Assembly: GCA_004431415.1 (NCBI GenBank)
Contig: QPMI01000562.1
Coordinates: 1 to 64,000, forward strand
Origin: Cyanophora paradoxa CCMP329
Taxonomy: Eukaryota; Plantae; Glaucophyta
Reading direction: 5' to 3'
Length of the DNA: 64,000 nt
Notes under the pieces: generated by a model
What the model was told of the DNA's origin: nothing
Seen by the model: the letters and a program-made list of their open reading frames with translations, nothing else
Database searches by the model: none
Shown here: piece after piece, positions 6,645-34,026 of the stretch
Layout: each line of letters starts with the position of its first letter
Numbering within the stretch: the stretch's first letter is position 1
Translations under genes and position numbers: made by a program

Positions 6645-7523
6645 ACACATAGTAAAATGCGGAGTTTTAACCCTCGGCTTATCTTAATTGATTTTGTTCA
6701 TATATCTCGTATATTCTATTTCAATCAATCGATAATCTGTGTATATCTTATCGAATATTCAATTATTTCGATTATTTTGTATTCTTTTCGATATTTTATC
6801 GTAAATTTCTCTTATTTTCCGATTAGTCTTACTGATTCTATCGATAATCTGTATAAAATTCCGAATAATATAACTGAATCTCAATTAGATCTTGCCTCTG
6901 GTTAAAACTCCGCATTTTACTATGTGTGATTGGTCTAAAAGTTAATTGATTTAATCGATATTATATTCATGTACTTTCTCGATTAAATTTAATTAAATTT
7001 AATTCATTTAATCGGAAACATATCGCTTAACTCGATTAAGATCCATATTAGATTCATTTGTTTAATAAAACAAATCGATCTCTTATTGAATTCAATCGTA
7101 ATTATACATGAAATTGATATGTTTTTCTCATGTTTTAATGAGTCTAAGGGGGTCCCTTAAGAATTTAATGAATAATTGGGTGTCACAGGTGTCACAGGTC
7201 CATCCCATCGAAAGGGAAAATCACTCTTTATAGGGCTTGAGCTGGGATAGACCTGTGACACCTGTGACACATACCATATTCAGTAAGGACCTCATATATT
7301 GTTAAAATCTCAGTGTTAGTTGGTGTAGTTGATTCAAAAAATGCATTTATACTCTGATTCATTGTTATTTCCTGTGAAATTTGAGTCAACTCAACCCACT
7401 TAGTCAACCCTTGCATTGAATTCGTAACAAAATCCATATACTATTACTACTTTTACGATTAATATGAGTCAACCTTGAGTCCACTTTAATATAAATATAA
7501 TATAATAGGGGGAATCAAGGGGA
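6645..7523 (+). repeat. Left TIR (879 bp)
   Basis: Reverse complement of 33,147-34,026. The only difference I noticed is a G5/G6 run at ~7,150. Confidence 0.95.
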
Positions 7524-8282
7524 GATGCTTATAAACATATGAATTATTGAGCCTATGATACTTACATCGTCAGGCAGGCCTCGTTAAGAGGATTCCTAAT
7601 CTGTTTTTGGTTTTGTCACATGATGAGTTGGTGAAGAGATACATGCATTTTAGTGTTTTGTATGTGGTTTAATGATATGATGTCATAATGCATGGGTTTT
7701 CGTCAACAGTTAAATGAACAGTTAAGTGGACACCGTTTCACGATAAACGAGTAGACACTGCCTACTCCCAACAGGTGTCCACTTAACTGTTCACTTAATT
7801 GTTCGCAATTTGCTTCATTGTCTTTCAATAGCTTTCCCGCATATCTTGTTTTCAATTGTTGTTGCAGTACACTATTACAATAGTTGTCTCGTTAACTGTT
7901 CACTTATCTGTTCGCTGCGGAAAAAAGACGATGACGGACGTGTTATGTTACGAAATGATGTCATAATGACGATGCATATGTATATGATATATATGACACA
8001 CCATCGAACTCGGGAGATCATGACGATCACGGCGATATATATATGTTATGTGTTTATGATACATCATTATTACATCATTATGATGCATCATTCCGAAATC
8101 TCGAAAAATCGATAATCGGCATCTTCAAACGCTTGTATCTCATCACCAGATTATCAAATCGCAACGTTCTGCATATCGCTGTGAAGCGCTTGAAAAGATC
8201 TACAAGACAATGTGTATATCATATGCATATATGTATATCAGTCATACATATATTTGGAAAAAACGAGTTTTCGGCTAGCAAA

Positions 8283-9668
8283 CTAGCTAGTTTTGGTCCT
8301 CTCTCTTAGTGTTCTTTGAGGTTTAGGGGCTGTATATGACTCCTTAGTAGTCTGAAAGTCACTATACCATCTCTGGCTATTCACTTCTGAAAGTTTCTGT
8401 GTGCCTGCTATGGTGAGCTTTTTGAGTTCCCTATTAACTTTCCCAGCCTTCTCCTTCCTAGCCTCTATCAAAGGCTTATCTGGGACTTCATTAGCAGCTT
8501 CTATGCCTTCTCTCCTTATAGCAGCATCAACCCTAGCTTCCTCTTTAGCTTGCTCTAAGGCATCTACTGTAGGGGTTTCCAGATACTCAACTGCATTCAC
8601 AGGCAACAGCTCATGGAAAGCAAACCTGTTATCTATGATCTCTCCAGTGGGACTCTTTAGCTTAAACTTAAAGCCTTCCCTACTATCAACAGTGTAAACC
8701 ATCCTAGACCAATTGTTACCCTGTTTAGCAAAGGGGTTCTTCTCTACTTTCACTCTAACAAACATGCCAGGCTGCATGGTATCAAGATAAGCTATTGATT
8801 TCTTGAATCTTTCATCTTCTAATCCTACTATATACCTATAATGCTCCTCTGTAGTTTCACCTGGCTTCATCTTAGTAGCTGAGTGAACTGTATTATTGTA
8901 ATTAAACTCAATATCACCCAACACATCAAAGAATCTAGCTGTGTTATTAGCTATGCAGTAGTTTGTGATCAATCTCTTAATCTGCTTGTTAAAGGCTTCA
9001 ATTCGACCTTGGCTCCTATGGTCTGCAGTTCCACTCACTTGGTGTTCTATGAATTTACTAGATAAATACTCCTGGAATATTCGATTTTGGAATTCACTTC
9101 CAGCATCTGATTGAACCTTTACTATGGGTCTTGCCACTCTCATCTCAAGCTGTTTAAATGCAGCTAATGTAGTGAGAGCTGATTTATCCCTTATAGGTAT
9201 GATATACCCAGTTCTCAGTGTTGATTCCATTGCAGTCATAAAGGTATCATAGCCATTGTTTTGTTTCTTATAAGCTGGGAAAAAGAGCAAATCAATCACA
9301 TAGGTATCAAGGGGTTGCCTTATTGGGACCATGGGATCTCTCTTCCTAGATATAGCAGGTGCATTGATCTGAACTACCTCTTGCTTTTTATAGAACTCTT
9401 GCAACTGCTTATAGGATTCATCTGGTAACTCAGCCCTCATAGCTTGAAGCCCTTTGTAACCAGTTCTCACATCATAGAATCTCTTGGCAATCTTGCTAGT
9501 TTCTTTCACTGCAATAGCAACTGGGATCTCTACTGGGACAAGCTCTTTCATCTCAGACTTTTTGACAATTCGAGATTCCCCTTTTTCCTCCTTTGGAACT
9601 GTGATAGGCAGTAGGTTACCTTGCAGTTGCTCAGTGGTTCTCCTTACTATTCTTCCAGTTGCTGGCAT
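8283..9668 (-). CDS. rve/DDE integrase (Polinton type), copy B
   Basis: YVID, QSDAGSEF and RIEAFN catalytic motifs in an intact 461-aa ORF. Confidence 0.93.
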   Translation of the reverse strand: MPATGRIVRRTTEQLQGNLLPITVPKEEKGESRIVKKSEMKELVPVEIPVAIAVKETSKIAKRFYDVRTGYKGLQAMRAELPDESYKQLQEFYKKQEVVQINAPAISRKRDPMVPIRQPLDTYVIDLLFFPAYKKQNNGYDTFMTAMESTLRTGYIIPIRDKSALTTLAAFKQLEMRVARPIVKVQSDAGSEFQNRIFQEYLSSKFIEHQVSGTADHRSQGRIEAFNKQIKRLITNYCIANNTARFFDVLGDIEFNYNNTVHSATKMKPGETTEEHYRYIVGLEDERFKKSIAYLDTMQPGMFVRVKVEKNPFAKQGNNWSRMVYTVDSREGFKFKLKSPTGEIIDNRFAFHELLPVNAVEYLETPTVDALEQAKEEARVDAAIRREGIEAANEVPDKPLIEARKEKAGKVNRELKKLTIAGTQKLSEVNSQRWYSDFQTTKESYTAPKPQRTLRERTKTS

Positions 9669-9671
9669 CTC

Positions 9672-12600
9672 TTAATTAAAAGGAACAGAATTAATACCAT
9701 CTGGTAAGATGTATCTCTTTGCATCAAAGCAGTTTAGGGCAACCCTTCTACTCACAGTATCTATTATTGTGTGATCTGCCCTTCTTTTCTGCTTTGCAGT
9801 CACAGTCTTGCTGATACCTGCAAATAAACACTCCTTAAAATCATTGAATTGGAGTTCCTCAGTGGAAGTCCCAGATAGCTTACTTCTCTCAATCTCAGCA
9901 GTTCTGAAACTGTAAACTTTGGCTCTCAGACCTACATACTCCAATATAGCAGAACCTGGCATCTCATTTTTGTATTTACCTGGGGTCATTCTGTTAGATC
10001 CCCCTAAGTCCAGATTAAAGGATATATTCTCTAGGTCTTTTTGGAGGGTCTGAGATTCGATATATAGACAAAAGGAATCAGTATCATGGAATAGTAACTT
10101 TGCTTTTGCCCACTGGGACCTTACAGTATCATAGAAGAACTTGTAGTTATGCAGTTTGGCAGTATCCAAAACATAAGCCCCAATAGCAACAGGTTTATCT
10201 AGCTTCACATGCTTTGTGTAAAACTCAAAGGCAACTGCTTTTTCGTTTATGGGACTTGTTGATTTCACCAATGGGGAAGCTGCATATTTCATAAACAGTT
10301 TCTCACTGTTTGCAATCTTAACCACAGATCTACCTCTGCAAGATTCAATGCATTTCCCATAGATTGAGTTATTCATGAGTTTATAGAAATCAGCCTCGAA
10401 TTTATTCACTGCTTTCCTTCTCATCTCAGTATTCAGCTCAATGTAGGGTTTCATTACAGGAGCCACAGTAAATGATAGGACCCTGTGAACCTTCTTTAGT
10501 TTCACCCCTTTGTCCAACAGATACTGTAGAAGAGGCTCAGAAATCACATAGTTTGTCACAGAACCAAAGGTTGCAGTTAGCTTAGGGGTCTTATCAAGCT
10601 CTTCTCCTGAGAGATCTAATAGGCTCTTTTGATATTGTGATAATTCTGCATATTCTACTATTTTCTTGTTAATAATTAGGGGGAAATCACTGTGGTCTAG
10701 ATATAGCCTAATTGGGTAATCCAGATCAACTTCCAGGAAACTGGATCTGTTATCTTGTGGGTTGAATTCGGTCTCCCATCTAAAATCACCAACTGGGATT
10801 GGCTGACTCAAACAGTAGCCATACAAGTTGTTAGCATCAAACAGCATTATATGGGAGTTCTCACCATCAGCCTCAGCATACCTACAAGGCATTGTTGCAA
10901 AGCCACCCCTGATTCCCCTCTCAACAAATTCGTATTGCTCTACATCACTTATTAGCTCTATTTTTGCCTTGGTGGTCCTTAACATAGCATCCCAAGATAA
11001 CCCAGGGGCAGATACATAATGAACTGGGTCAAGTCCATATACTGAGTGTGAAAGCCTTCTAAAAGCCTGGAATTTGTTCATTAACTCATCTACATCAGCA
11101 GCTCCAAAATCCATGAAGTTACTTGCATCAATGAACTTGTAAAGACCCCATTGCAATGAAAGGTATTGATCAAAGTTTTTCGAAAGGATTTCGATTCGCT
11201 TTTTATCACCCATGCCTGCTATTTTTCTGAAAATGAATGTCCCACAGTCATCCATTTGGTCAACAACTACTGCAACTTTGGTTTGCTTTGAGATTCTCCT
11301 ATGGAGATTGCAGTTTCTGCATGCAGGAGCAATATAATGACCTGTGTGGTGATCATGATCCCTGCATTTGAAGTTCTCCTTAGTGAACCTCTCACTGCAA
11401 AGGTAACAGTGTTTGGTAGCTCTGTAAATTGCTTTCTGCTCATCTGTGAGTTCATTCATAGGAATGTTGGTAAACAGGAAATCGATTAGTTCTCTTGCTT
11501 TGGACTCCAAGCATTCAAAGAGACCTCCCATTGGATCCTGACCCTCAAATCGAAACTCCTGAACATCTGCCCCAGTGACTACTCTCAGGTTGACTGCTGA
11601 GACTTCCCTCTTAGATTTTGATGCATCAATGGGGATGCTTCTATGTTCAATCTTGCAGTAAACCACAACAGGAAGCCAAACAGTTTTCCTGAGGTTTTTC
11701 AGTCCAAACTCTATGGTGGTCTCAGGTTTTGGTGTGATTCCCTTTGAGAGTCTCCAATCAATGCATCTATTTGAGTCCACATGAGCAGTGAGTTTAGCCT
11801 CAGACCTGAATCGAGATAAGCATGTATCACAGTAGTGTAACTTTTGATCCTTGGTTTTATCAAGGGCAACTCTGAGAAGTCTTGAAAGGGACATGATTGT
11901 AATATAGTGACCATTCCCTTCATCATCATGAATGAGCATTAGATTAATCTTTTGCTTTCTACCTGGGTTACTGGATTGATGTAGGGGATATATAACATCT
12001 CGATCCATTCCAAATATGTTTATGCTGATGCCTGCATTTTGAGATTCGAATTTATCAATTATTTCAGCATCACAGGCAACAGGGAATGGGATGTTATCGA
12101 AATTGAGTGCCAGAGGATTGTATGTAGTTGGTGAGTATTTCCATTTGCGATATTGTGTAAGCTCACTTCTCTTGTGGGAATTCACATCTTTCCTATGGAT
12201 CCATGCCAAAATGGCATTTTCGAAGCAAGAATCATCAATATTTCGAATATTCACTGTGGCTCTCTTGGCTGCAATTGACTCAGGTGTTTTAACATAGCAA
12301 CCACCGGTTGGGGCATAACTCATAATAGCAACTCTAAGCATTTCGATTCTCTCCAATCGATAGCTATCAACAACATTCATCTGTTCCTGACACATTTGGG
12401 CTGCTTTATTCAGCTCAGTTCGAATATTTCTCGATTTGGTTAATACAAAATAATCGCTGTAAATGTATTTCGATATCCAAACCTGTGGATTGCTGACTTT
12501 TACGAACTTGCAGATAAACGATAAGCGAACTTTGATTGCCCTGAATTGATCTAGACTGTCTCTTAAACGTTTTGGTAGAGAGGTTGCAATTCTATCTAAA

Positions 12601-12917
12601 TATTCAATCACATCAACAACAACTTCCCTTCTGGCTCTGTAAGTGAGCCAGCGATATAATTCATTCATTGCTGTACCATCTTCTGCCTCTGGTTCTATTT
12701 GCCTCAGGCGATCGAGTTCATCAAGAGTTTCAACTTTATCATAGAGGTTATTGGCTTTTCTGGTTAATTTCGCTAAAGTGGGTCTGCCCCTTGAAATAAA
12801 TCTGATTTCCCGGTCATATTCAGCCTCTGTAATTTCATGGGCTGCATACAGTGTTCCCAGTAATCCCATGAGTTCCCATTTCTTCTCTCTAATGAGTCTG
12901 TTGCTAATTCGGGGCAT
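9672..12917 (-). CDS. Protein-primed family B DNA polymerase (terminal-protein/vOTU-like N-terminus, endonuclease VII-like Zn finger, degenerate exonuclease)
   Basis: NIDDSCF...GHY, CYLC...RDHDHHTG...CRNCN, YGLDPVHY, GIRGG, DANNLYG, KLMNNSIYGK, HDTDS, LRAKVY. Confidence 0.93.
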   Translation of the reverse strand: MPRISNRLIREKKWELMGLLGTLYAAHEITEAEYDREIRFISRGRPTLAKLTRKANNLYDKVETLDELDRLRQIEPEAEDGTAMNELYRWLTYRARREVVVDVIEYLDRIATSLPKRLRDSLDQFRAIKVRLSFICKFVKVSNPQVWISKYIYSDYFVLTKSRNIRTELNKAAQMCQEQMNVVDSYRLERIEMLRVAIMSYAPTGGCYVKTPESIAAKRATVNIRNIDDSCFENAILAWIHRKDVNSHKRSELTQYRKWKYSPTTYNPLALNFDNIPFPVACDAEIIDKFESQNAGISINIFGMDRDVIYPLHQSSNPGRKQKINLMLIHDDEGNGHYITIMSLSRLLRVALDKTKDQKLHYCDTCLSRFRSEAKLTAHVDSNRCIDWRLSKGITPKPETTIEFGLKNLRKTVWLPVVVYCKIEHRSIPIDASKSKREVSAVNLRVVTGADVQEFRFEGQDPMGGLFECLESKARELIDFLFTNIPMNELTDEQKAIYRATKHCYLCSERFTKENFKCRDHDHHTGHYIAPACRNCNLHRRISKQTKVAVVVDQMDDCGTFIFRKIAGMGDKKRIEILSKNFDQYLSLQWGLYKFIDASNFMDFGAADVDELMNKFQAFRRLSHSVYGLDPVHYVSAPGLSWDAMLRTTKAKIELISDVEQYEFVERGIRGGFATMPCRYAEADGENSHIMLFDANNLYGYCLSQPIPVGDFRWETEFNPQDNRSSFLEVDLDYPIRLYLDHSDFPLIINKKIVEYAELSQYQKSLLDLSGEELDKTPKLTATFGSVTNYVISEPLLQYLLDKGVKLKKVHRVLSFTVAPVMKPYIELNTEMRRKAVNKFEADFYKLMNNSIYGKCIESCRGRSVVKIANSEKLFMKYAASPLVKSTSPINEKAVAFEFYTKHVKLDKPVAIGAYVLDTAKLHNYKFFYDTVRSQWAKAKLLFHDTDSFCLYIESQTLQKDLENISFNLDLGGSNRMTPGKYKNEMPGSAILEYVGLRAKVYSFRTAEIERSKLSGTSTEELQFNDFKECLFAGISKTVTAKQKRRADHTIIDTVSRRVALNCFDAKRYILPDGINSVPFN

Positions 12918-12974
12918 AGTTCCTAACTTGTTCCTACTAAAAGGGGAGGTTTTAAATGGGGATATTCCGAACGC

Positions 12975-13025: not shown

Positions 13026-13028
13026 ACA

Positions 13029-13847
13029 ATGGCAGAGAACAAAGCAACATCTTCTCTGGAACGCTTGAAGGCTACATTAATGTTTCTTTGTGGATCTAAT
13101 AACTTTAAAGACTTTGTCGCTTTGGGGAGAAGCAAATATATGAACTCTTTGTATTTGAAACTTGCAAAGTATGATTTGACTCACGAAAGCCTTCCTCCAC
13201 ACTCAAACAGCTGTGCTTGCAAGCATCATATTGAAGAACAATGCTACATCTTGCATGTGGATAAAAAGATTGTGGTTCTTGTTGGCAACTGCTGCATTAA
13301 ACGATTTATGCCAAATGGTGCAAGGAGGGAAGATATATGCAAGAAATGCGGAGATCGACATAAAAACCGTAAGGATAATTTCTGCAATAAGTGCAGGATT
13401 ATCATAAAGGAGGAGGAATTGGAAAGAAAAAAGCAAATCCAGAAAGAAGCAGAGGAGCGAAAGAAACAACTTGAATTAGAAGAAAGAGAGCGAAGGCAGA
13501 GAGAATTAGAACAAGAAAGAGCAAGGAATAGACATGCAGTTAATCTTTTCCTGATTTGGTGCAACCAGTTCATTCCAAAAATGGATAATCTTCGCAGAGA
13601 TGATATAGAGAGGTTCAGAGAGGGTAGATCTGCATTGATTGAAATGTATGCAGAACTCAGTACAACAAACACATTGGTTGCTGGGTTTCAGGTGCCTTTT
13701 CTTAAAAAAGATATCGCAAAAGGATTAGATTGCAGATGGAATAAGGACAAGAAAACATGGGAGACCTTGGAAATCGAACCATTTGTAGCATTGCTAGGTA
13801 AGCATTTCAAACTTATGTATATTGAGAGATTTGGACAGAGAGGTTAA
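13029..13847 (+). CDS. Cys-rich Zn-binding protein with coiled coil and C-terminal DUF5710-like domain
   Basis: CACKHHIEEQCYI...VGNCCIKRF; CKKC...CNKC; VPFLKKDIAKGLDCRWNKDKKTW. Confidence 0.7.
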   Translation: MAENKATSSLERLKATLMFLCGSNNFKDFVALGRSKYMNSLYLKLAKYDLTHESLPPHSNSCACKHHIEEQCYILHVDKKIVVLVGNCCIKRFMPNGARREDICKKCGDRHKNRKDNFCNKCRIIIKEEELERKKQIQKEAEERKKQLELEERERRQRELEQERARNRHAVNLFLIWCNQFIPKMDNLRRDDIERFREGRSALIEMYAELSTTNTLVAGFQVPFLKKDIAKGLDCRWNKDKKTWETLEIEPFVALLGKHFKLMYIERFGQRG

Positions 13848-13903
13848 AGAACAAAAAATGATTTAAAGAATTCTCTATATATATTAAGAGAGACAGAGGA
13901 AAA

Positions 13904-14158
13904 ATGCCACTCAGTGAAGCCCAGAAGAGAGCTATGAAGAGGTACCAGCAAACTGAAAAAGGTAAGGCTCAAATCAAAAAGTTTAACGAAAAAATAGCCA
14001 CACAGCTAAGAGATCTATATCAAACCGATGATACCTATAGAGCCATGAAAATAGCCAGTTCATGTCAGCGAAAGTATGCAGCCAATGCAGTCTGCTTTGT
14101 AAAATATTTATATGATGTCCCTTACTCAAATCGAGGGAGAAAATTGAAACATGTCTAA
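13904..14158 (+). CDS. Small basic protein, probably DNA-binding
   Basis: MPLSEAQKRAMKRYQQTEKGK, preceded by the shared promoter motif. Confidence 0.65.
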   Translation: MPLSEAQKRAMKRYQQTEKGKAQIKKFNEKIATQLRDLYQTDDTYRAMKIASSCQRKYAANAVCFVKYLYDVPYSNRGRKLKHV

Positions 14159-14363: not shown

Positions 14364-14370
14364 GCTGAAA

Positions 14371-16698: not shown

Positions 16699-16759
16699 AC
16701 AAAACGATTTATGATTGAAATGTATATGTATTTTTTATAGCCTTACTGGAAATGGTGTT

Positions 16760-16851
16760 GTTCACAGGTGTCACAGGTCCATCCCATCTAGGGGGCTATA
16801 AAAAGAAAAATGACCAGGGGACGATAAAAACCTGTGAACACCTGTGACACC
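16760..16851. repeat. Internal copy of the TIR TGTCACAGG inverted repeat (candidate origin)
   Basis: tcacaggtgtcacaggtccatcccatc is identical at 16,762-16,788 and 7,183-7,209; the opposing arm acctgtgaacacctgtgacacc is at 16,830-16,851. Confidence 0.85.
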
Positions 16852-16918: not shown

Positions 16919-17139
16919 ATGGCAAAGGCTCTTGAAGAAATGACCATGATTGAGTTAGATAAATGCATTAAACATGGAGATATAGGGCATATATCGAAAT
17001 GTCACAGAGATTGATAGGTTACAATGTGTATGCAGCAAAATCAAAGAGAAATAGATCAGTAAACATTCACATAACTGTTTCAGTGTCTGAGAATGCAAAC
17101 AAAAAACAACAAAAGCATATTTACAAAAGTTATCTGTGA
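16919..17139 (+). pseudogene. Possible ~73-aa ORF with one frameshift
   Basis: The ATG follows an aaaatttga..acttaaag motif. The frame runs open to tga 17,139 if one A is restored at ~16,972. Confidence 0.35.
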
Positions 17140-17226
17140 CTTGATTGCAAGTATAAAGCCAATTCCTTTGTATATATTTTTATAGCTGCCTCAGTTGCAT
17201 ACTGAGACCGCTTTTTCTCAATTATC

Positions 17227-17737: not shown

Positions 17738-17759
17738 ATCTCTAATAAAACAGAGATAA

Positions 17760-22752: not shown

Positions 22753-24294
22753 AGGCACCTGTAAAGTCCACTCTCATTGTGGGAGCATTCACATACACAA
22801 GGGATAAATGCGAATATACTTGATTCTGAGAGAAAAACCTATGTAAAAAGCATCCTTGATGCTGAGAGGAAATCCACTCAATAAAGCAACATCACCTGAG
22901 TTGTGAGCATTGTTAATGTTCTCACAGACATATATTTTGTTCTGCCCATCTGATCGAATAAAAGACCAGTTGATCCCATCAGTGGATGTTGCCACATTGA
23001 AAGTCTTAATAAAAGCATTGGTGTCCCTGAACCATAGGCAATAACAGAGGAGAGTTCGAAAGTATATGGGAAAGCAACTTGAAGGTATTCAGTGGGGGTT
23101 TCCCATATCTGCTCAGGAGCATAGGCTCCAGCTTCCCAGCCAAATGCTGAAGGTCTAGCCATGAAAGGCTCTTTACCTGTCACAGAGGATGAGGCAGTGA
23201 AGGCATCATCTGCAAGCTGATACCAATTTGCATCCAAAGGAGGTGATGTAGTGAGAGTGGATGATATGTAAGCCTTTGAAGGGTTCTTTAATTCATAGTT
23301 TGCTACTAGAATGCTGCAAAGCTTATTAATCATATCATTGTTTGCTGCAATGTATGTTTCAGTGAATGCAAGCATGTCTGGGATTTTAGAAGTGTCATCC
23401 AGGGAGCTTACTATATGATTTGGAAGTGGGACTGATAGCCTATAGTATCTCCCATAATCCTGATCATAGTTGTAGGGTAACAACTCCTCCATCTTATCAA
23501 GGGCAGAAAGCTCACTTGCAGCCATGAGCATGTTAATCAATGGGCTTCCATCTGTTGAGGCAATCCATGAGAGAATGCCCCAGCTGTTGACAGTCTCATA
23601 AGCATAACCCACATAATCAGACTCTAAATGTGGGTCCACCTCTCCACAAGATATACTTATTACTATAATATCATCATCATCACTGTAAATTTTCTTTGCA
23701 TGGCTGTAACCACACACACTGGGATTATTGTTTCCAGAAATGGCACCATCAATGAGACAGACATATACTCCCCGATTGAAATCAACAATGCTTACAGGTG
23801 AAAAGTATGTAGGAGCAGCAGAAGTAGCCCTAGCAGCAATCTTACAGGGCATAAAGTTGTAATTGTTGTCATTTGTGATAAATATTGGTTTCATATTCTG
23901 AGTATCAAAGGATGTGATCACAATGTCCTTTAGGGAATCCTGTATTAGTGATTCACCAGTAACTGAATTGATTGCAGTCTCCAAGGGTCCCACATCATAC
24001 TTTGTATTAAAAAGGGCATTTTCGATTATATTTCGAGGATTTGCGAAAATCAAGGGCAGTTGAGTTAGGTAAATATTGTGTAAATCGTTTGCTGTCAGTT
24101 TAGGTTCACCTGGTTTATCAGGATGCCTTATATTCAAACCTATTGCAATGATCCCACCAGTGGAAGTTCCACTCACAAGATCCACAAGATCGATTATTCT
24201 CCTGCCAGTTCGATTTTCGATTTCTTTTAGCAGCCTGGTTATGATAATGCCCTTGCACCCCGCCAGAAAGACTTAAAACGACCTTGAGAGGCAT
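22742..24294 (-). CDS. Patatin-like phospholipase fused to a discoidin (F5/8C) domain, three 1-nt frameshifts
   Basis: VLSLSGGG(C)KG, GTSTGG, ARATSAAPTYF, LIDGAI..NNP; then FTASS..W..EYLQVAF..FNVATSTDGINW..YIRIYP..MRVDF. Confidence 0.85.
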
Positions 24295-24337: not shown

Positions 24338-27300
24338 ATGAGCTTCAATTACCCACCAAATCTAGAAACCATTCAAGATGATAATGCAAGCAGCACCAAG
24401 CATGTGAACTTTGATAATATTAAAGTAAAGGGTTCAGTTTCAATTGACCACAGCTCTGATAATTCATCAAAGACTCAATCAAGGGAGCATGCTTTATCTG
24501 TGAATCAAACCGATCCAGATAAAGAGGATGTCAGTGTAGCCTTTAGTTTGGGTAATGTGAAAGCAAACCAAGTGGCAGAGATCAAAGCAACAAGAAGGAG
24601 ACCTAGGAAACTAAAAACCAGTGGCACTCACCCAGATATACCTTCCAGGTTTGATAGTGGTCGATTGATTTTCAATGTTCAAGATGAGCAGGGCAAACAG
24701 AACACAGCTTTGCGAATTTACAATGAGGGCAGCACTGCAAAAGCTGAGGTCCCCCAAGTATTGCAAGTGGGTCCCATTGCCAATACAAATCAGGTCTCCT
24801 ACACAAATGATGTCTACCCCAAGGATATTACATATGACTTTGCAAGAAATGAGCCTTTTGGTTTCTTTACTCCAAAAGATGTCCATCAAAAAAAGCCATC
24901 AATTACAATCAACAGTAGCCCCAGTCAACCAGTAGCAATCCATTTACATCCTGATTTAGTCGAAATGGATAGGCACCTTTTGCCTTTGTATAGCAATGTG
25001 AAAGACCTTGGAATTAGAACCAGGCAATGGCGAAATATCCATGGCAGCAATGTGTATGCAAATGGGGAGAAACTTGTGAGTGAGAAAACTCTAAGGGAAA
25101 TAATTGAGCATTATGGTCCCAATGGACCAACAGTCCCATTCCCTATTCCATTTCCAAATGGACCTCCCGATTTAACACCAAAGAAACAGCCTGGAAGAGA
25201 ATACACAGCAACTGAAGATGTAGCCTTTGGGCAGCATATTGTTAGTTGGGAGCAAGTTCGCAATAAACCTATAATTGAACCCAGAAAGCAAATAGATGAG
25301 CAGTATTTACCTCCTGAAGTCGATATATTAGAGCTTGATGAATATCAATTCGTTCCAGATGAGGAAGAATATTTACCAGATGGTTTTGACCCACAAGAAT
25401 ATGAATATGATCAGTTTGACCCCAATGAGGAGGAGATACTACCAGATGGCTTAGATCCCCAAGAGTTTGAGTATGAGCAGAACTATGAACCTGATGAGGA
25501 GTATTTGCCAGATGGGCATGATCCACCAGCTGTTGACTATGAGCAACCTTATGAACCCCATGAGGAACTATTACCAGATGGATTTCGACCTGAGATCTGG
25601 GAGTTCTTTCCTGATTATGAACAAATTAATAATAAACCTGCAAAGTATCCCCCAGAGGATCACAATCATGACTGGGATGAGATCTTAGGCAAACCACAGA
25701 AATACCCACCAGAAGACCACAGGCATGATTGGGGTGATATTGATGGGATTCCAGATAAGTTTGCAGCAAGCAACCATGAACACACTTGGGATGAGATTAA
25801 TGACCAACCAGAGTTTGCAAAAGTGGAGCCTCTTGCTACTCTGGGAGTTTCTCTTTACCAGACTTGCAATGTCCCTGAAAGGATCTTTTTGAATGAACAC
25901 TATGTACATGTGAATGGGACACTTGCGAATTCAGCTATGAGAGGACCACTTCATATTAGGACATTACCAGGCTCTTATAATCCACCACCTGAACCAGGAG
26001 CAACCATACCAAATATCTTTGTGTCAAGCTACATGGAGGCTGACATTCCCACAGATACATTCAGAGTCCCAACAGACCCAGCAACCTACCAAAATTACAA
26101 CTCTGCTATACAGGTTCATGTAGCAGATGTAAGCAGTCTAGATGGATCAAGACCAATGATAGTTTTCAGTCGAGATAAATATTCCTATATTCCCATAGTG
26201 GGAACTGCAAATGATAACTATGGAAGGGCAGAGCTTGCATGGATTAAAACAAACTATGGTGGGGTTCTGGAAGCCAATCAGAGGATGGCAGCAAAAAACA
26301 TACACAATGAAAATATTTCGAGAGTGGTCACAGAGGATTATCTAGAAGATCAAGGATATATTGATGAAGGTGAACTCACAAATATTCTTTCTCTTTTTGT
26401 GATCAAAAATGACACAAACCTTACAGTCACTTCCAATATCTACACCAGTAACCTTTATACAAGTAACATTTTCACAAGTAACCTATGGGCAAGTAACATT
26501 TGGACAAGAAAACTATGGGCAGATGATATTTACACAAGTAATCTTACAGTGTATCGAAATATAACAATTGGAACACAAAACACTATACAAATACTTTATA
26601 GACCTTACTACGCTGTTACAACTGTCATTGATCCAGCCCCAATTATTCCAAATTGTATATTTGCATGGAAAGCATCAGGTCAACATGGTCAGTTGATTTA
26701 TTACCAAGGTAAGATATATAACAGAGTTACTACACAGATACCATATCTAACAAATTATTCGAATTGGGAAACTGTTTATTATTATTTGAATGCAACCCTA
26801 AACAATCAAATTTCGATTGGGAAAGAATTAAACATGGCTTATAGGAATAGTGTTTCAATAGATTGGTCATTAGGTCTTACATTATTCTTTATAGGTAGGA
26901 TCAATACAACAAACCCTTCTTATATGTTGAGTATAAGGGATAGTTCTTATCAAAATTGGATTGGATATGGTTGTAAAAATCAAAAGTTTGGTGTTTCACT
27001 ACAAATTCAAAACGATATAGAAAATGCAACTCCTCCATTATTCGATGCATCATATATTTATAATTCGTGGAATTATTGGGATTTCACTGTTTCCTCAGAG
27101 CAAATTGTCGTAGGAATGGGTGGTATTGATATTGGAACATCATCGGGTGATTTTCTTCCACCTTCTAATTTTGCATCATTTGGTTCTTCTGTTGCTAATG
27201 GAGATCTTGCCGAAATTATCGTTTTCAATCGTGCGTTATCTATTGAAGAAAAGAACGCGGTTAGATATTATATACAATTATTGTATGGATTTCCAAATAC

Positions 27301-30166
27301 GCAGCCCATATTGAATAATGAAGATCTTAAAATTAATTCGAGCAATATATTTATTGAAAATCTCACAGTTACCAAAAATGCAACTCTACCACATCATCCA
27401 ACATCGAATGTTGTTTTAGATTGGTTAGCAAAACAAAAACACACAAAAGCAGATATTACGGATTTCGCCCATACTCACACAAAATCGCAAATCACAGATT
27501 TTGACCATACTCACACAAAATCGCAAATCACAGATTTTGACCATACTCACACAAAATCGCAAATCACAGATTTCGCCCATACTCATTTATGGGAGCATAT
27601 CACAAATCCTCCGTTAACCTTCCCACCTGATTCACACACTCATGATTATTCAGAGATTACAAATAGCAACCACAGGCACCCATGGAGCGAAATAGACGAA
27701 CAGCCAGTTTTTGCCCAATTGAATGCAATCGGAAACGTTTTTAATGGAGTCACACTTTACCAATCGAGTAATACACCTGAAAGATTGTATTTGAATGATC
27801 ATTATGTTAGTCTCAATGGTTCATTTACAGGTGAAACAGGCACACCGATGGTGGGAACTCTTGCAGTAAGATTACCCAGGGATCCAATCGTAAATGGAGT
27901 GTATAGTGGCGATTTTAATGTAGGAGTAAATGATACTTTCCCCAGTATCTATGTAACGAATTATCACCCGGGTGAAACAGGACAAGTAGCGGATTTTTCA
28001 GCAGCTATTCAAATTAACGTAACAGATCAAAGCGCATATGATGGAGCAAGACCTAAAATAGTATTCACAAGGGAGAAAGTCGTTAACTATCTTCCTGTTG
28101 TGGGACAACCCACAGACGATCATGGGAAATGTGAGATGGCGTGGATAAAAACGACATCAGGTGGCGCCTTAGAAGTCAATCAGAGAATGGCGGCGAAAAA
28201 CTTACACAATACAACCCTTTCCGGTGTTGTTACAGATGATTACCTTACCAATAAAGGGTATCTTACCTCAGCCGATTTAAGTAGTTACACAACAGATGCA
28301 GAATTAACGGCGGCACTTGCTAATTATCTACCTCTCACAGGTGGAACTGTAACAGGAACTGTGAATGCTACCACTTTACAAATTGGCGGAACCACAATAC
28401 CAAAAGGTTACGATTTCGACCAATTAGATGTGGTTTCATCAGATAGAAGCGCAAATAATTGGAATTTAGGGTGGACACCAAGAACAGGACAAACAGGATG
28501 TTATACAACACCACAAAATGATGAAGATTGTAGCGGTTGTTTTATGAGGTGGACTGTCCCCACAGGTATGAAATCATTTTATATTCAGCATATGCCTTGG
28601 TATAATGGCAGATATTTTGATATCTATGGTCAGACTCTCAATAACAATCAGCATTTCTTAAAACGTGTAAACGATTATCAAGGAATACAGTCAGTAAATC
28701 ATGATGGGACAAATAGTACTATCTTGTTTGTATCAATTAATTGCGAGTTTTACAAGTATATTTATGTTCAAGGTCGAAAAGGTCGCATTCATCTCACAGG
28801 AGTTTTTGGTTGGAGTAGGCAGAGGGCAACAGATAATGATGTTGGTATGATCTCTTGGGATAATATATTTAGCAAACCGTCATTTTACTCAGCCGCAGAC
28901 CTTCCACAAACCGCAACATGGGCAACAAATACATGGTTAAAATCAGTAGATGCAGTCGAGCGAATTTGGTTTGGTACTGGCGATTGCACATATATACGAG
29001 GGAGACCAAATGGTGATGCTGTGTCAATTGAATTCAGAAACTCAGCAGATACAGCCATTTTAAAATCTTATAACAATGGTAACTTTTGGGTGAATAACAC
29101 TATTACAGCACCTACTATTAATGCAACCACCAAACTCCAAATAAACGGTAATGATGTCCCAAAGTTTCACACAGCAGATAAAACAGTAGGAGGTATTGCA
29201 TTTAATAGATGTTCTGAGGGTTGGACATGGGCATGGAGTTCAGCATGGGATCCATATTATAATTATGGTTCATATGTTTATAATAATCAAACGGATGATC
29301 AAACATCTACCGCTTGGATTGACTTCGATATACCCGATGGATACCACACAGGAACAGCATTTTTAACCTATTTACCTTGGACTAACTCACGACTTTTTGA
29401 AATTTGGGGAGTAAATCGACAAGGAAATGAAGTTTTTATTACATCAGTGAATAGTTATCAACCATACGCCACATCTCCTGACAGTAACCACAGTGGTATA
29501 AATAATGTTCCAATACATCTTGGTAATCGATTCCTCACTATTCGGATTAGACCAAAGATAGGAAGAGTTCATATTATGGGTATAAGTTATATGAAAATTT
29601 GGGTAGGAAATAGTTATGGTGGTCACACCGGTTATATTCATTGGAATAATGTTTATAGTAAACCAAATATCTTAACAGGGGCATTGGATCTTTGGTTTAA
29701 CTCTAATGATGGATATAATCGTATCTATTTTACGAATAATAGCACCACGTATTTTAAAGGAAGAGGAACTTATCCAATAAGATTTCGAAATGAATTAGAT
29801 TCTGATATTTGTTGGATCGATCATGACGGGCGGATGTGGATAAACAATTATTTAACACAAGGAAGTGACAGAAGATACAAAACAGATATTAAAAAGATAA
29901 CCGGCGCTCTTTCAGCAATCGAAAAATTAGAAGGAGTGAGTTTTAAACGAATTGGGAGTGAAAAAGACGGAACAAAATTAGGTTTAATTGCGCAAGATGT
30001 AGAAAAGGTAATACCAGAAATTGTAAGTGTCACAAAAGAAGATGGTTACCTTTCTCTCGAATACACGGGTTTAATTCCAGTTCTCATTGAAGCTGTGAAG
30101 GAGTTGTCCCAAAAATGCAAAGATCTACAGGATCAAATAGACCAAATTAAAAATGTCAAAGTATAA
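24338..30166 (+). CDS. Giant modular fibre/spike protein with C-terminal peptidase S74-like intramolecular chaperone
   Basis: HxH fibre repeats (WDEILGKPQKYPPEDHRH; HTHTKSQITDF), TSNL pentapeptides, LamG-like GDLAEIIVFNRALS, SDRRYKTDI...GLIAQDVEKVIPEIV...LIPVLIEAVKEL. Confidence 0.88.
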   Translation: MSFNYPPNLETIQDDNASSTKHVNFDNIKVKGSVSIDHSSDNSSKTQSREHALSVNQTDPDKEDVSVAFSLGNVKANQVAEIKATRRRPRKLKTSGTHPDIPSRFDSGRLIFNVQDEQGKQNTALRIYNEGSTAKAEVPQVLQVGPIANTNQVSYTNDVYPKDITYDFARNEPFGFFTPKDVHQKKPSITINSSPSQPVAIHLHPDLVEMDRHLLPLYSNVKDLGIRTRQWRNIHGSNVYANGEKLVSEKTLREIIEHYGPNGPTVPFPIPFPNGPPDLTPKKQPGREYTATEDVAFGQHIVSWEQVRNKPIIEPRKQIDEQYLPPEVDILELDEYQFVPDEEEYLPDGFDPQEYEYDQFDPNEEEILPDGLDPQEFEYEQNYEPDEEYLPDGHDPPAVDYEQPYEPHEELLPDGFRPEIWEFFPDYEQINNKPAKYPPEDHNHDWDEILGKPQKYPPEDHRHDWGDIDGIPDKFAASNHEHTWDEINDQPEFAKVEPLATLGVSLYQTCNVPERIFLNEHYVHVNGTLANSAMRGPLHIRTLPGSYNPPPEPGATIPNIFVSSYMEADIPTDTFRVPTDPATYQNYNSAIQVHVADVSSLDGSRPMIVFSRDKYSYIPIVGTANDNYGRAELAWIKTNYGGVLEANQRMAAKNIHNENISRVVTEDYLEDQGYIDEGELTNILSLFVIKNDTNLTVTSNIYTSNLYTSNIFTSNLWASNIWTRKLWADDIYTSNLTVYRNITIGTQNTIQILYRPYYAVTTVIDPAPIIPNCIFAWKASGQHGQLIYYQGKIYNRVTTQIPYLTNYSNWETVYYYLNATLNNQISIGKELNMAYRNSVSIDWSLGLTLFFIGRINTTNPSYMLSIRDSSYQNWIGYGCKNQKFGVSLQIQNDIENATPPLFDASYIYNSWNYWDFTVSSEQIVVGMGGIDIGTSSGDFLPPSNFASFGSSVANGDLAEIIVFNRALSIEEKNAVRYYIQLLYGFPNTQPILNNEDLKINSSNIFIENLTVTKNATLPHHPTSNVVLDWLAKQKHTKADITDFAHTHTKSQITDFDHTHTKSQITDFDHTHTKSQITDFAHTHLWEHITNPPLTFPPDSHTHDYSEITNSNHRHPWSEIDEQPVFAQLNAIGNVFNGVTLYQSSNTPERLYLNDHYVSLNGSFTGETGTPMVGTLAVRLPRDPIVNGVYSGDFNVGVNDTFPSIYVTNYHPGETGQVADFSAAIQINVTDQSAYDGARPKIVFTREKVVNYLPVVGQPTDDHGKCEMAWIKTTSGGALEVNQRMAAKNLHNTTLSGVVTDDYLTNKGYLTSADLSSYTTDAELTAALANYLPLTGGTVTGTVNATTLQIGGTTIPKGYDFDQLDVVSSDRSANNWNLGWTPRTGQTGCYTTPQNDEDCSGCFMRWTVPTGMKSFYIQHMPWYNGRYFDIYGQTLNNNQHFLKRVNDYQGIQSVNHDGTNSTILFVSINCEFYKYIYVQGRKGRIHLTGVFGWSRQRATDNDVGMISWDNIFSKPSFYSAADLPQTATWATNTWLKSVDAVERIWFGTGDCTYIRGRPNGDAVSIEFRNSADTAILKSYNNGNFWVNNTITAPTINATTKLQINGNDVPKFHTADKTVGGIAFNRCSEGWTWAWSSAWDPYYNYGSYVYNNQTDDQTSTAWIDFDIPDGYHTGTAFLTYLPWTNSRLFEIWGVNRQGNEVFITSVNSYQPYATSPDSNHSGINNVPIHLGNRFLTIRIRPKIGRVHIMGISYMKIWVGNSYGGHTGYIHWNNVYSKPNILTGALDLWFNSNDGYNRIYFTNNSTTYFKGRGTYPIRFRNELDSDICWIDHDGRMWINNYLTQGSDRRYKTDIKKITGALSAIEKLEGVSFKRIGSEKDGTKLGLIAQDVEKVIPEIVSVTKEDGYLSLEYTGLIPVLIEAVKELSQKCKDLQDQIDQIKNVKV
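27469..27586 (+). repeat. 36-nt tandem repeat, about 3.3 copies (HTHTKSQITDFD)
   Basis: ccatactcacacaaaatcgcaaatcacagattttga units start at 27,469, 27,505 and 27,541. Confidence 0.95.
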
Positions 30167-30169
30167 TAA

Positions 30170-30475
30170 ATGGCGACCTATCCTCTTGGTGGAACCACCT
30201 ATTCTACTGAGCCTGTTGCGCTTTCTTTTGATACAATCACCCTTGTAAACGCATTACAAACAGTTGAAAAAACGATTCAGCAAACTAACAAGCTCTCACC
30301 AGTTGTCAATGAGTATAAAAACCTCTTGGTTAATGTCCTTGCTCAAGCTGCATATGGTGACCCTGTTGCTAAATACACTGAGTGTGATAACAACATTAAA
30401 GCAATGACATCCAACCTGCAAGTTCTTTCAACTGTTTACCAATCCCTTGGATCGAATTTAATCACTTTGGCTTGA
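30170..30475 (+). CDS. Hypothetical helical protein (101 aa)
   Basis: Starts 3 nt after the fibre stop codon; viral composition. Confidence 0.65.
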   Translation: MATYPLGGTTYSTEPVALSFDTITLVNALQTVEKTIQQTNKLSPVVNEYKNLLVNVLAQAAYGDPVAKYTECDNNIKAMTSNLQVLSTVYQSLGSNLITLA

Positions 30476-30514
30476 TTGCAGTTTATTTTTCTTTCCTTCT
30501 TAGTAAAAGAAGCA

Positions 30515-31369
30515 ATGGGTGAATATAATCGAGTTCAACTGCCTATATATTCCCTTGGATCCCCTGCAATGCATTTTCGCCAGCATGAAGTAAATGATGA
30601 GGTTCGTGGTTTAGAATCCACAGAGAGACCCAATTCCAATGGCAACTCCTTTGATAAAAATTCGATTATTCGAGTTAAAGAGCTGAGAGCTGATAAGAAT
30701 TCTGGTGTGGTTAAAACAACTCGACTTCTTGTCACAAATGCTAACTTTTTCCAGCCTACCAATGGAGGTCCTGATGCTTACAGTGTTGATCTGAAAGCCC
30801 TTGATTTCGATAAGAATTCTGCTGCTGTAACTGTGAGATCAGGAGGAGCATTTATTGGTGGTGGCTGCAGAGTTTCAGGTCAGCTATCTTCATCTGTTTC
30901 CTACAATGATGTCCCAGATACTCTCGAACAAAATGTGGAGAACCCACAACGAATTCGTTTCTACACACCTGTTGCACAGCAACCTTTTTTGCATTTCTAT
31001 GTTGCATCCTCTGTAACTCTTGAGAATTCGGAATTAGTTTCCATTACAGGAACTGATCGAGTAAGAAGAAATATTCCTCTTCCCACTGCAATGCTTTCCA
31101 TGTGTAGAGCCAATAATAATCAACCAGGACACAACTACTTATTCTTTGTTCAAGCTTCGAACCATTTTGGCAGAGGATATTGTGTTTATAACAATTTGAC
31201 ATTTACCTATGATCTGTTTGTCACTGAGGTTGGAGTATACAATACTATGATTATGGGACTGAGAACAGATATAGCAGCTGTATCAGCACTTCGTGGGGTA
31301 AATGTTGCTGATATATTCACAACAGGATTTTACCAAGAATTAGATGTAATTGATGACCCAACCCCATAA
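30515..31369 (+). CDS. Putative structural protein, paralogue 1
   Basis: Shares ELRxDKNxGxVKTTxLLVTNANF and SGGAxIGxGxRVxG with the next gene. Confidence 0.75.
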   Translation: MGEYNRVQLPIYSLGSPAMHFRQHEVNDEVRGLESTERPNSNGNSFDKNSIIRVKELRADKNSGVVKTTRLLVTNANFFQPTNGGPDAYSVDLKALDFDKNSAAVTVRSGGAFIGGGCRVSGQLSSSVSYNDVPDTLEQNVENPQRIRFYTPVAQQPFLHFYVASSVTLENSELVSITGTDRVRRNIPLPTAMLSMCRANNNQPGHNYLFFVQASNHFGRGYCVYNNLTFTYDLFVTEVGVYNTMIMGLRTDIAAVSALRGVNVADIFTTGFYQELDVIDDPTP

Positions 31370-31392
31370 AAGATATATCCCTTTAATGTAAA

Positions 31393-32226
31393 ATGGCTGA
31401 GCAACCCCCACTTGAACGAATTCTTACACCTCTGCTGTCATTAGCTGCCCCAGCAAACCATGTTTTACAGCACGCTACCTTTGATGATGTAGAGGGTCTC
31501 CAATCAACAGAGGTCCAACCTACAATGAACACCTTTGGTTCCACCCACAAGCTGAGATTGCAGGAACTCAGATGTGATAAAAATAATGGAATAGTTAAAA
31601 CAACTAAGCTACTTGTCACAAATGCAAACTTTTCTGCTCATTATGGAGACCCAGATAGTTATGGAGATCCTCTTTCTACTTATTCTTTTGAATCTAGGTC
31701 GGGAGCTATTAACTGCAAATCGGGGGGAGCTTATATTGGTGATGGTCTTAGGGTTGGTGGGGCTGTTGGAGCGCCTTTATTTGTGAATGATCAACCCAAT
31801 CCCATTGATCCCAACACAAGAATTCGAACCTATGTCCCCAGCATGAATGCCCCCTATATAATAAAAATATTCCCAATTGTTGTGAATGAACAAACAGCAG
31901 TAGTAGACTCTCTTGTTGAAATTGGTGACCACTACAAGGTAGTTGTGGATATCCCACCAGATGTTTATGCTCTTTGTCAAGTAGAGGGTGGAACTCCTAA
32001 TTTTGCTGTTGTGATCACCCCATATGATAATTTTGGTATTGCTTATCATGGAGTCAATTTCGGTTTGGAAGATTATCAGTTCCTGGTTAGAGCCACCAAG
32101 TTTGGTATCTACAAGTGTGTATTATATGCTGAGAGAACCGATTTTATTGCAAGGCAGAATACCTATGCTGAATACTATGGCACAAATCGATATTTCCCCA
32201 TTTTCGGGCAGGATACTGCTCCATAA
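31393..32226 (+). CDS. Putative structural protein, paralogue 2
   Basis: Same motifs as the preceding gene. Confidence 0.75.
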   Translation: MAEQPPLERILTPLLSLAAPANHVLQHATFDDVEGLQSTEVQPTMNTFGSTHKLRLQELRCDKNNGIVKTTKLLVTNANFSAHYGDPDSYGDPLSTYSFESRSGAINCKSGGAYIGDGLRVGGAVGAPLFVNDQPNPIDPNTRIRTYVPSMNAPYIIKIFPIVVNEQTAVVDSLVEIGDHYKVVVDIPPDVYALCQVEGGTPNFAVVITPYDNFGIAYHGVNFGLEDYQFLVRATKFGIYKCVLYAERTDFIARQNTYAEYYGTNRYFPIFGQDTAP

Positions 32227-32248: not shown

Positions 32249-32521
32249 ATGGATAGTAAAACAAAAAAGTTTATTGATGCTGCTATGACAGTCCATGGTA
32301 AAGATAAATTCGATTACAGTGAGACACATTACATCAAAGCTCAAGAGAAAGTATCTGTGAGATGTTTGCAGTGTAATAAAGTGATCCTTACCTATCCCTT
32401 TAATCATGTGAAGGGATCAGGGTGTAGGGACTGTAACAAAAGAAAGAGTCAAGCACACAGGAAAAGAGCTACTTCATCAATCAGAGTAGAGTATAGGGAT
32501 ATTTGCATTAGGTTCGATTAG
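32249..32521 (+). CDS. Stand-alone DUF723-like Zn-ribbon protein (homing-endonuclease-associated DNA-binding repeat)
   Basis: FIDAAMTVHGKDKFDYS..Y....KVSVRC..C.....P.NH.KGSGCRDC. Confidence 0.75.
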   Translation: MDSKTKKFIDAAMTVHGKDKFDYSETHYIKAQEKVSVRCLQCNKVILTYPFNHVKGSGCRDCNKRKSQAHRKRATSSIRVEYRDICIRFD

Positions 32522-32550
32522 GTTTAATTAATTTTTCTAAGGTATTCTTA

Positions 32551-32949
32551 ATGGAGACTAAATACAGAGGCTTTCATGTTATGCTTGATTACAAAGCTAA
32601 ATCAGCTATTGCAACAGGACATGAGCATGTAAGCTTCCTAGGTAATTGGATTATGAGAACCCTAGAACAAGCAATATTAAGACAAGGCATTAGGATTGTT
32701 CATAAACACTGTGAGATATTTGATGGCAAAGTATCACCTCCTGGGTTTGCATTGGTTCTGCTATTAGATGAAAGCCATTGCACAGCTCATTGTTATTCCA
32801 ATGAAGGCATGTTAGCAATTGATATATTCAGTTGTGGTAAAGAAGCTCAGCATAAAACACAAGCAGTTGCAGATGAGATCGATAAAACAATGAATTTCCT
32901 CACATTTGAGAAGACTGAGAGACATAAACATGATAGATTCCCGTTTTGA
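32551..32949 (+). CDS. speD: Prokaryotic-type pyruvoyl-dependent S-adenosylmethionine decarboxylase proenzyme family
   Basis: GFHVMLD...PPGFALVLLLDESHCTAHCYSNEGMLAIDIFSCG; ESH autocleavage motif; 132 aa. Confidence 0.88.
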   Translation: METKYRGFHVMLDYKAKSAIATGHEHVSFLGNWIMRTLEQAILRQGIRIVHKHCEIFDGKVSPPGFALVLLLDESHCTAHCYSNEGMLAIDIFSCGKEAQHKTQAVADEIDKTMNFLTFEKTERHKHDRFPF

Positions 32950-33146
32950 TGGGTTTCTATAATGATAATCAAGGTAATTTACCTTTTGTTTTACAATAGC
33001 AACTGTTACAAAAAGATATAATATATCCTTTTCCTACAGTAGCTTTCTACAATGTTTATTTTCCGGATTCCGGACATTTTTTACGATAGAATTCTATTGT
33101 AAGTAATTGGAATACTATTCGATTTCATTACAGTAAAACTCAACAT

Positions 33147-34026
33147 TCCCCTTGATTCCCCCTATTATATTATATTTATATTAAAGTGGACTCAAGGTTG
33201 ACTCATATTAATCGTAAAAGTAGTAATAGTATATGGATTTTGTTACGAATTCAATGCAAGGGTTGACTAAGTGGGTTGAGTTGACTCAAATTTCACAGGA
33301 AATAACAATGAATCAGAGTATAAATGCATTTTTTGAATCAACTACACCAACTAACACTGAGATTTTAACAATATATGAGGTCCTTACTGAATATGGTATG
33401 TGTCACAGGTGTCACAGGTCTATCCCAGCTCAAGCCCTATAAAGAGTGATTTTCCCTTTCGATGGGATGGACCTGTGACACCTGTGACACCCAATTATTC
33501 ATTAAATTCTTAAGGGACCCCCCTTAGACTCATTAAAACATGAGAAAAACATATCAATTTCATGTATAATTACGATTGAATTCAATAAGAGATCGATTTG
33601 TTTTATTAAACAAATGAATCTAATATGGATCTTAATCGAGTTAAGCGATATGTTTCCGATTAAATGAATTAAATTTAATTAAATTTAATCGAGAAAGTAC
33701 ATGAATATAATATCGATTAAATCAATTAACTTTTAGACCAATCACACATAGTAAAATGCGGAGTTTTAACCAGAGGCAAGATCTAATTGAGATTCAGTTA
33801 TATTATTCGGAATTTTATACAGATTATCGATAGAATCAGTAAGACTAATCGGAAAATAAGAGAAATTTACGATAAAATATCGAAAAGAATACAAAATAAT
33901 CGAAATAATTGAATATTCGATAAGATATACACAGATTATCGATTGATTGAAATAGAATATACGAGATATATGAACAAAATCAATTAAGATAAGCCGAGGG
34001 TTAAAACTCCGCATTTTACTATGTGT
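33147..34026 (-). repeat. Right TIR (880 bp)
   Basis: Reverse complement of 6,645-7,523. Confidence 0.95.

Follow-up and report, generated by a model that had tools for sequence, protein, structure and literature searches.

Genome organization

The 64,000-nt stretch of DNA analysed here (the window; positions 1 to 64,000 of contig QPMI01000562.1 of the glaucophyte Cyanophora paradoxa CCMP329) contains a full-length polinton-like virus (PLV) genome of 27,382 bp, bounded by terminal inverted repeats (TIRs) and integrated at window 6645-34026 with a 6-bp target-site duplication (TSD). Judging from its motifs, its DNA polymerase, a protein-primed enzyme of family B (pPolB), has lost proofreading, and the genome likely replicates by means of its primase-helicase, with repeats resembling an origin in both TIRs as the loading sites, a reading that we regard as probable.

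The two TIRs (6645-7527 and 34026-33144) are 99.77% identical by blastn across 884 columns, and a global alignment of 879 columns has zero substitutions and a single 1-nt indel. The termini read ACACAT...ATGTGT, which is the AC...GT type, and are flanked on both sides by GAGACT. Nineteen gene units span 86% of the element. A first-pass annotation made from the sequence had described near-identical ~880-bp TIRs, a perfect 6-bp TSD, AC...GT termini and about 20 genes, all of which stand, as does its reading of a recently integrated PLV. The terminal 28 bp of the left TIR recurs inverted at 6900-6927, with a predicted panhandle fold (z -8.25). GC content of the element is 30-42% per kb, compared with 52-80% in the host DNA to its right.

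Pfam and PHROG matches identify rve, DNA_pol_B_2 with an EndoVII/HNH insert, Prim-Pol plus D5, an A32 ATPase, patatin, an S74 fibre chaperone and S-adenosylmethionine decarboxylase (AdoMetDC); the rve, EndoVII/HNH insert and discoidin matches fall below their Pfam cut-offs. With that qualification for rve, these matches bear out the proposed co-occurrence of pPolB, rve and Prim-Pol/D5, as well as the phage-like fibre (with its S74 tip), the patatin and the AdoMetDC. Catalytic motifs are kept in rve, the ATPase, the primase-helicase (AEP-S3H; archaeo-eukaryotic primase fused to a superfamily 3 helicase), patatin and AdoMetDC. The genome lies within the 14-40 kb range of PLVs and has TIRs and an integrase, as they do, and the element also has the pPolB, rve integrase and 6-bp TSD of canonical Polinton/Maverick elements. 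The features that bear on replication, integration and virion assembly are:

6639..6644, no strand: left TSD, GAGACT
6645..7527, + strand: left TIR
7180..7270, no strand: origin-like element of the left TIR, two GTGTCACAG repeats facing two inverted repeats (putative iterons)
8283..9668, - strand: rve-type integrase, 461 aa, D,D,E motifs present, profile match below the Pfam cut-off
9672..12917, - strand: pPolB, 1081 aa, with an N-terminal putative terminal protein, a viral OTU-like (vOTU) domain (C231/H337), a degenerate exonuclease, an HNH/EndoVII-like insert and intact polymerase motifs A/B/C
14371..16698, + strand: AEP (Prim-Pol)-D5 superfamily 3 primase-helicase, 775 aa, a relative of African swine fever virus (ASFV) C962R
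16759..16850, no strand: origin-like inverted TGTCAC repeats ~70 nt behind the primase-helicase stop codon
18523..19305, - strand: A32-like packaging ATPase, 260 aa (PF04665, E 9e-12)
19365..20730, - strand: major capsid protein (MCP), split over three frames
20784..21792, - strand: probable penton 1, frame-split, weak assignment
21822..22752, + strand: penton 2 (single jelly roll), frame-split near 22500-22560
33144..34026, - strand: right TIR, with origin-like repeats inside at 33400-33490
34027..34032, no strand: right TSD, GAGACT

A DNA polymerase without exonuclease motifs

Among the 120 pPolB matches listed, the closest (P0007) is 48% identical to the window protein and the 119 others, one of them from coral, are 34-39% identical; there were zero sequence matches in the Protein Data Bank (PDB). 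An HNH-like insert is present in 98 of the 119. The vOTU Cys/His residues and polymerase motifs A, B and C are intact in the window pPolB, and the proofreading motifs I to III (Exo) are not. Counted over the 119 listed relatives other than P0007, the ExoI Asp is kept in 92/92 that have residues there and the ExoII His/Asn/Tyr in 106/106, whereas all of these are gone from the window protein. The segment from ExoII to the palm is 33 aa long, compared with a median of 127 (minimum 123; 112/119 rows), such that ~94 aa over ExoIII are missing; an ExoIII-like motif, present in 108/112 relatives, is gone from the window protein. Both the neighbouring copy described below and P0007 have the same exonuclease loss and form one clade with the window pPolB (support 1.0) on a long branch. 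The intact Exo I-III motifs of canonical Polintons are thus absent, and the pPolB is predicted to have lost proofreading.

Exonuclease motifs are reported as conserved across polinton pPolBs (Jeong 2023), and Krupovic 2024 gives two cases, mavirus and S1H-fusion PLVs, in which their loss goes with the gain of a helicase. The window element has the mavirus-like set of an exonuclease-less pPolB together with an S3H helicase and rve, and we infer that the glaucophyte lineage is a further case of this pairing. Within the limits of the collection searched (including PMC13215967), the literature on pPolB exonuclease loss has no description for the Cyanophora family.

Primase-helicase and origin-like repeats

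The sequence GTGTCACAGG occurs exactly ten times in the window, four copies per TIR and a further two past the stop codon of the AEP-S3H gene, always as opposed sets and nowhere else; with one mismatch allowed there are 12 copies, compared with 2.1 expected. Opposed short repeats immediately behind a primase-helicase gene are the arrangement of PriRep-type origins. Those of Staphylococcus aureus pathogenicity islands (SaPIs) share the opposed-repeat layout and are bound by the C-terminal domain of the SF3 helicase (PMC9371898). SaPI PriRep and phage origins resemble the window locus in having an AEP fused to an SF3 helicase followed by short opposed repeats around a spacer. They differ in that the window element also has the repeat block in both TIRs of a eukaryotic virus, where binding is predicted.

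Among 25 IMG/VR loci with the 19-mer, 11 have it 8-622 nt behind a primase-helicase gene, eight have it in collagen-like coding repeats and six are unassigned (the scan covered 35/75 long open reading frames (ORFs) from 24/25 loci, and the ORF coordinates of L020 are identical to those of L012). The core repeat is in both orientations in 9/11 of the primase-helicase loci. TGTCAC/GTGACA clusters immediately follow primase-helicase genes of several families in phages (L005, L008, L010, L013-L019, L023), and TGTCAC/GTGACA is seemingly a widespread origin-like motif behind such genes. D5 relatives in the viral contigs amount to one weak locus. As far as the collection searched goes, literature on polintons with iterons and on Cyanophora with polintons leaves the repeats of this family undescribed.

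Going by the placement of the repeats, the simplest reading is that the AEP-S3H was acquired along with its origin and is now loaded close to either end of the genome, and the repeats in the TIRs are likely loading sites for the element's own primase-helicase. The gene set that the first-pass annotation called hybrid is likely the mavirus-like pairing of a lost exonuclease and a gained helicase, reached independently, because the Exo motifs are lost and the primase-helicase is followed by TGTCAC repeats that recur in both TIRs.

Capsid, packaging and protease

The three MCP frames jointly match an intact 456-aa paralog from C. paradoxa (P0001), with 54% identity over the C-terminal piece. This best named relative agrees with the glaucophyte host suggested from the sequence. 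A search among 1.84 billion sequences returned six representatives at E 0.001, and there were zero relatives in the viral contigs and zero PDB sequence matches. The P0001 model (predicted local distance difference test, pLDDT, 61) is a double jelly roll with Vp54 of Paramecium bursaria chlorella virus 1 (PBCV-1) as its best match (E 4e-16, template-modelling score 0.55); the mavirus MCP ranks 50th (E 1.6e-9), and MCPs of the nucleocytoplasmic large DNA virus (NCLDV) type are matched in BFVD. The MCP family, as modelled, folds as a double jelly roll, as had been anticipated for this protein.

Two pentons had also been proposed. Penton 2 is supported by the fold of a homologue, P0127 (52% identical; pLDDT 58), the model of which matches PBCV-1 capsid chain 6ncl_a6 (Z 9.6, root-mean-square deviation 3.5, 115 aligned) as well as the mavirus penton (E 9e-4). 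For penton 1, shared motifs are seen by eye and the match to a penton-2 profile is weak (E 0.03-0.1), so the proposal is partly upheld; a BLASTP comparison of penton 1 with the penton-2 tail was not significant.

No Ulp1/adenain maturation protease was found in 28 + 128 frames compared with Pfam, in line with the first-pass annotation, although four ORFs without assignment were not folded; a protease motif had zero matches in 142 frames. Because no such protease was found and the exonuclease is dead, the element is not a canonical Polinton.

A neighbouring element, copy number and frameshifts

A second, related element lies head-to-head with the first:

1..6250, + strand: neighbouring related element with pPolB and rve and a different AT-rich end

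Window 28-5633 is an inverted copy of 7366-12976 at 94.6% identity, and the two elements are ~400 bp apart. Between them the rve codons have 41 synonymous and 6 non-synonymous differences, and the C-terminal part of pPolB has 48 and 12, so the two copies have diverged under purifying selection. A fold-back artefact was considered as the origin of the neighbour copy and is ruled out by the 5% divergence, which is mostly synonymous. The repeats in the AT-rich end of the neighbour are of another set (GTTGACTAAG/GAGTCAAC); some of them recur in the inner TIR of the main element, and this TIR therefore looks mosaic; GTTGACTAAG had 0 matches in the viral contigs.

In 16 sequencing runs labelled organism A, 59-65% of sampled words were present. 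Contigs inside the element reach ~10 to 110x the depth of flank or single-variant contigs in three organism-A runs, with similar ratios across runs; contig depth here does not equal copy number and GC bias is uncorrected, and a high-copy family agrees with these data. At the breaks in the MCP, penton and patatin genes, short-read contigs among the matches listed (12 of 40) depart from the window by single-base indels. Three break sites have such a one-base difference throughout the contig depth in two or more of the three DNA-type runs. There are no in-frame stops within the five largest genes. Such breaks are described in Bellas 2023 (PMC10120064) as common assembly artefacts in multicopy endogenous viral elements (EVEs). 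The most likely source of the frameshifts is misassembly of a repeat present in many copies, and given the differing short-read contigs and this account of artefacts, the window copy is probably intact.

Run X17, labelled organism B, has low-depth contigs over window 6645-24300 that are mostly 90-99% alike, TIR included, which suggests that another taxon or strain has a related element. This run, guessed to be RNA, was dropped as evidence of expression: its 39 contigs at depth 2-4 include the non-coding TIR.

Promoters and CpG content

TTAAAG-N-TATATA is present at 12995, 13863 and 14322, upstream of the three rightwards-transcribed genes of the replication cluster only, and is a candidate early promoter (promoter motif background: PMC5294985). 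TATA-like motifs are upstream of 10/19 genes, compared with 3.2 expected (two of the 19 gene starts used in the upstream counts are off, one by 19 nt and one by 3 nt). CpG is scarce in the coding core (observed/expected 0.34) and abundant in the distal TIR (2.2), where GC is 26%. The distal ends of both elements (6645-7150 and 5900-6250) have 23-26% GC, CpG ratios of 2.2-2.4 and many TCGA, and coding regions have ratios of 0.19-0.34; these ends are possibly methylation-sensitive. C. paradoxa methylates repeats and viral genes and carries giant-virus insertions (PMC12344493).

Other genes and flanking DNA

The remaining genes of the element are:

13029..13847, + strand: 272-aa Cys-rich/coiled-coil protein, weak DUF5710, TTAAAG-N-TATATA upstream
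13904..14158, + strand: 84-aa basic protein, TTAAAG-N-TATATA upstream
17130..18494, - strand: three small ORFs (81/88, 93 and 244 aa)
22789..24294, - strand: patatin-like phospholipase (GTSTG and DGA motifs) with a C-terminal discoidin-like domain, frame-split
24338..30166, + strand: fibre, 1942 aa, with phage-tail-like repeats and a C-terminal S74 chaperone
30170..32226, + strand: 101-aa ORF and two paralogous 284/277-aa proteins (34% identical)
32249..32521, + strand: small HNH-associated/zinc-finger-like protein
32551..32949, + strand: AdoMetDC, ES self-cleavage site intact

The fibre (24338-30166) has acidic PDG-DP repeats, H-H-W/K repeats and a 12-aa tandem array near 27440-27585, and a further stretch that looks LamG-like by eye. 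The N-terminal halves of the paralogous ~280-aa proteins (30515-32226) look fibre-shaft-like by eye; the pair has zero Pfam or PHROG matches and the 284-aa member none in the PDB or in phages.

The flank is GC-rich with intron-split genes, and Ion_trans matches 2/12 frames scanned. These matches are to a leftwards-transcribed host gene at 42000-51000 for a multi-domain voltage-gated ion channel with many short GC-rich introns. Host genes at 53700-58000 (+ strand) and 60000-62000 (- strand) are presumably RNase Z-like (HFHADHH motif) and phytochrome GAF-like, going by motifs recognised by eye; they have zero Pfam matches in the frames scanned.

Comparison with known elements

The element belongs to a glaucophyte PLV family that is already catalogued but scarcely described. 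The first-pass suggestion of an uncharacterised lineage thus fails in its strong sense: the MCP family is in Tables S2 and S4 of Bellas 2023, where C. paradoxa accounts for 366 MCP hits that form two clusters separate from the named groups (P0001 itself is in Table S2, with HHpred 98.5% to an iridovirus MCP), and the gene types occur among the 156 glaucophyte elements of Bulzu 2025 (PMC12220804). Table S6 of the latter records A32 in 139, rve in 85, PF03175 in 49, D5_N in 40, Prim-Pol in 8, S74 in 37, lipase in 89 and AdoMetDC in 66, and 0 in all nine protease columns; discoidin fused to patatin is also mentioned there. Adintovirus-like proteins were reported in C. paradoxa contigs by Starrett 2021. 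The window element shares with these endogenous PLVs the MCP family, the gene types and the zero count for maturation protease. However, the tables are counts, and the portions of text and tables available have neither the exonuclease loss nor the TIR repeats, although the gene maps and external datasets may include this locus. New here are the dead pPolB exonuclease and the origin-like repeats; these, the vOTU protease inside pPolB and the second element are absent from the first-pass annotation.

The hybrid combination of genes is real but not unprecedented, as low-GC endogenous mavirus-like elements (EMALEs) have rve, primase/helicase and pPolB together (Hackl 2021). Mavirus and low-GC EMALEs (Maveriviricetes) are also alike in rve, a short TSD and an exonuclease-lost pPolB with a separate S3H/primase-helicase. 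Mavirus differs in several respects: the MCP model, that of P0001, is closer to the PBCV-1/NCLDV type, an Ulp1-type protease was not found in the frames scanned, TCTA is not enriched, and the window pPolB is from the HNH-bearing polinton group with an exonuclease remnant kept. The replication module is mavirus-like in its make-up, and virophage status is not implied. Polintons with an HNH-bearing pPolB (Jeong 2023 pPolB2-like; Alpha-adintovirus-like) share 34-39% identity over the polymerase region, the HNH-like insert, vOTU, rve and the 6-bp TSD; unlike them, the window element has degenerate Exo I-III, an extra AEP-S3H, an unrelated MCP sequence family and no adenain/Ulp1 detected.

A model for the element and its alternatives

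The model starts from the anatomy, gene set, capsid-family fold, exonuclease loss, repeat placement and purifying selection between two copies established above. The rve integrase would have inserted a linear genome, and the provirus would be held silent, probably via host CpG methylation. The trigger for its release would most likely be co-infection with a giant virus, a step for which the case is about evenly balanced. In the freed genome the vOTU domain would release the terminal protein. The AEP-S3H, as a hexamer, would sit on the inverted repeats that lie ~0.55 kb inside each terminus and open the duplex in front of the exonuclease-less polymerase; internal priming by the primase of the AEP-S3H may contribute. 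The MCP, the pentons and the ATPase would give an icosahedral particle that needs no protease, in which the S74-chaperoned fibre would serve attachment and the patatin-discoidin lipase membrane entry.

Several observations weigh against this model. The capsid and penton models are of homologues and of modest confidence. The link of repeat to primase rests on phage loci of mostly other helicase families, with 1/25 matching the window protein (tblastn). The TCTA promoter of Cafeteria roenbergensis virus (CroV) and mavirus is not enriched (8/19 upstream regions compared with 6.8 shuffled, p 0.34), and the TATA-like enrichment fits host transcription equally. Several breaks have the alternative allele in only part of the contig depth, and depth varies ~tenfold along the element, so that the copy in the window may in part be a patchwork of subtypes.

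The most serious competitor is the same virus acting autonomously, transcribed by host RNA polymerase II and replicating in the nucleus without a giant-virus helper. The TATA-like motifs, the confinement of TTAAAG-N-TATATA to three replication-cluster genes and the provision of two replication enzymes by the element all favour it, but the described exonuclease-less pPolB systems include giant-virus parasites, C. paradoxa has giant-virus insertions (PMC12344493), and published accounts of endogenous Tetraselmis PLVs have them woken by a giant virus and helper-dependent. Helper dependence of the window element could go either way, and full autonomy is a credible but somewhat less probable outcome. 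Zero substitutions between the TIRs, five largest genes free of in-frame stops, the one-base difference in whole contig depth at three break sites and the reported frequency of such artefacts (Bellas 2023) make it unlikely that the element is a decaying pseudo-provirus incapable of forming particles, in which the MCP, penton and patatin frameshifts are real, even though the window has four or more structural genes with split frames.

The pPolB could alternatively be a vestige in the course of replacement, with AEP-S3H alone replicating the genome from the repeats. Its lost exonuclease and long branch are what this predicts, many PLVs are reported to use AEP-S3H without pPolB, and PF03175 is in only 49/156 glaucophyte elements (PMC12220804); intact polymerase motifs A/B/C and vOTU Cys/His together with purifying selection between the copies nevertheless render it rather improbable. 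The ~tenfold difference in contig depth between modules might instead reflect an assembly chimera of different subfamilies, which we consider very unlikely given the matching TIRs and TSD, the ordered gene blocks, the same repeat in the TIRs and the primase-helicase locus, and the record of all gene types among glaucophyte elements in the tables cited. The preferred reading remains a PLV whose pPolB lacks proofreading motifs and whose primase-helicase is likely loaded at its TIRs.

Implications

This family seems to make up a few per cent of a model glaucophyte genome, yet in the literature searched it is present as table rows only. With an exonuclease remnant that is still readable, the element allows the proposed trade-off in preplasmiviricots, an exonuclease lost for a helicase gained, to be tested independently, and the origin-like TIR repeats are a concrete cis-element that is assayable with the intact AEP-S3H gene. 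Tentatively, the glaucophyte PLVs might be a third independent lineage that took up a primase-helicase replicon along with its cognate origin while its polinton pPolB lost proofreading, the origin being copied into both TIRs afterwards; they would represent a dual protein-primed/origin-primed intermediate and may defend glaucophytes against an unisolated giant virus.

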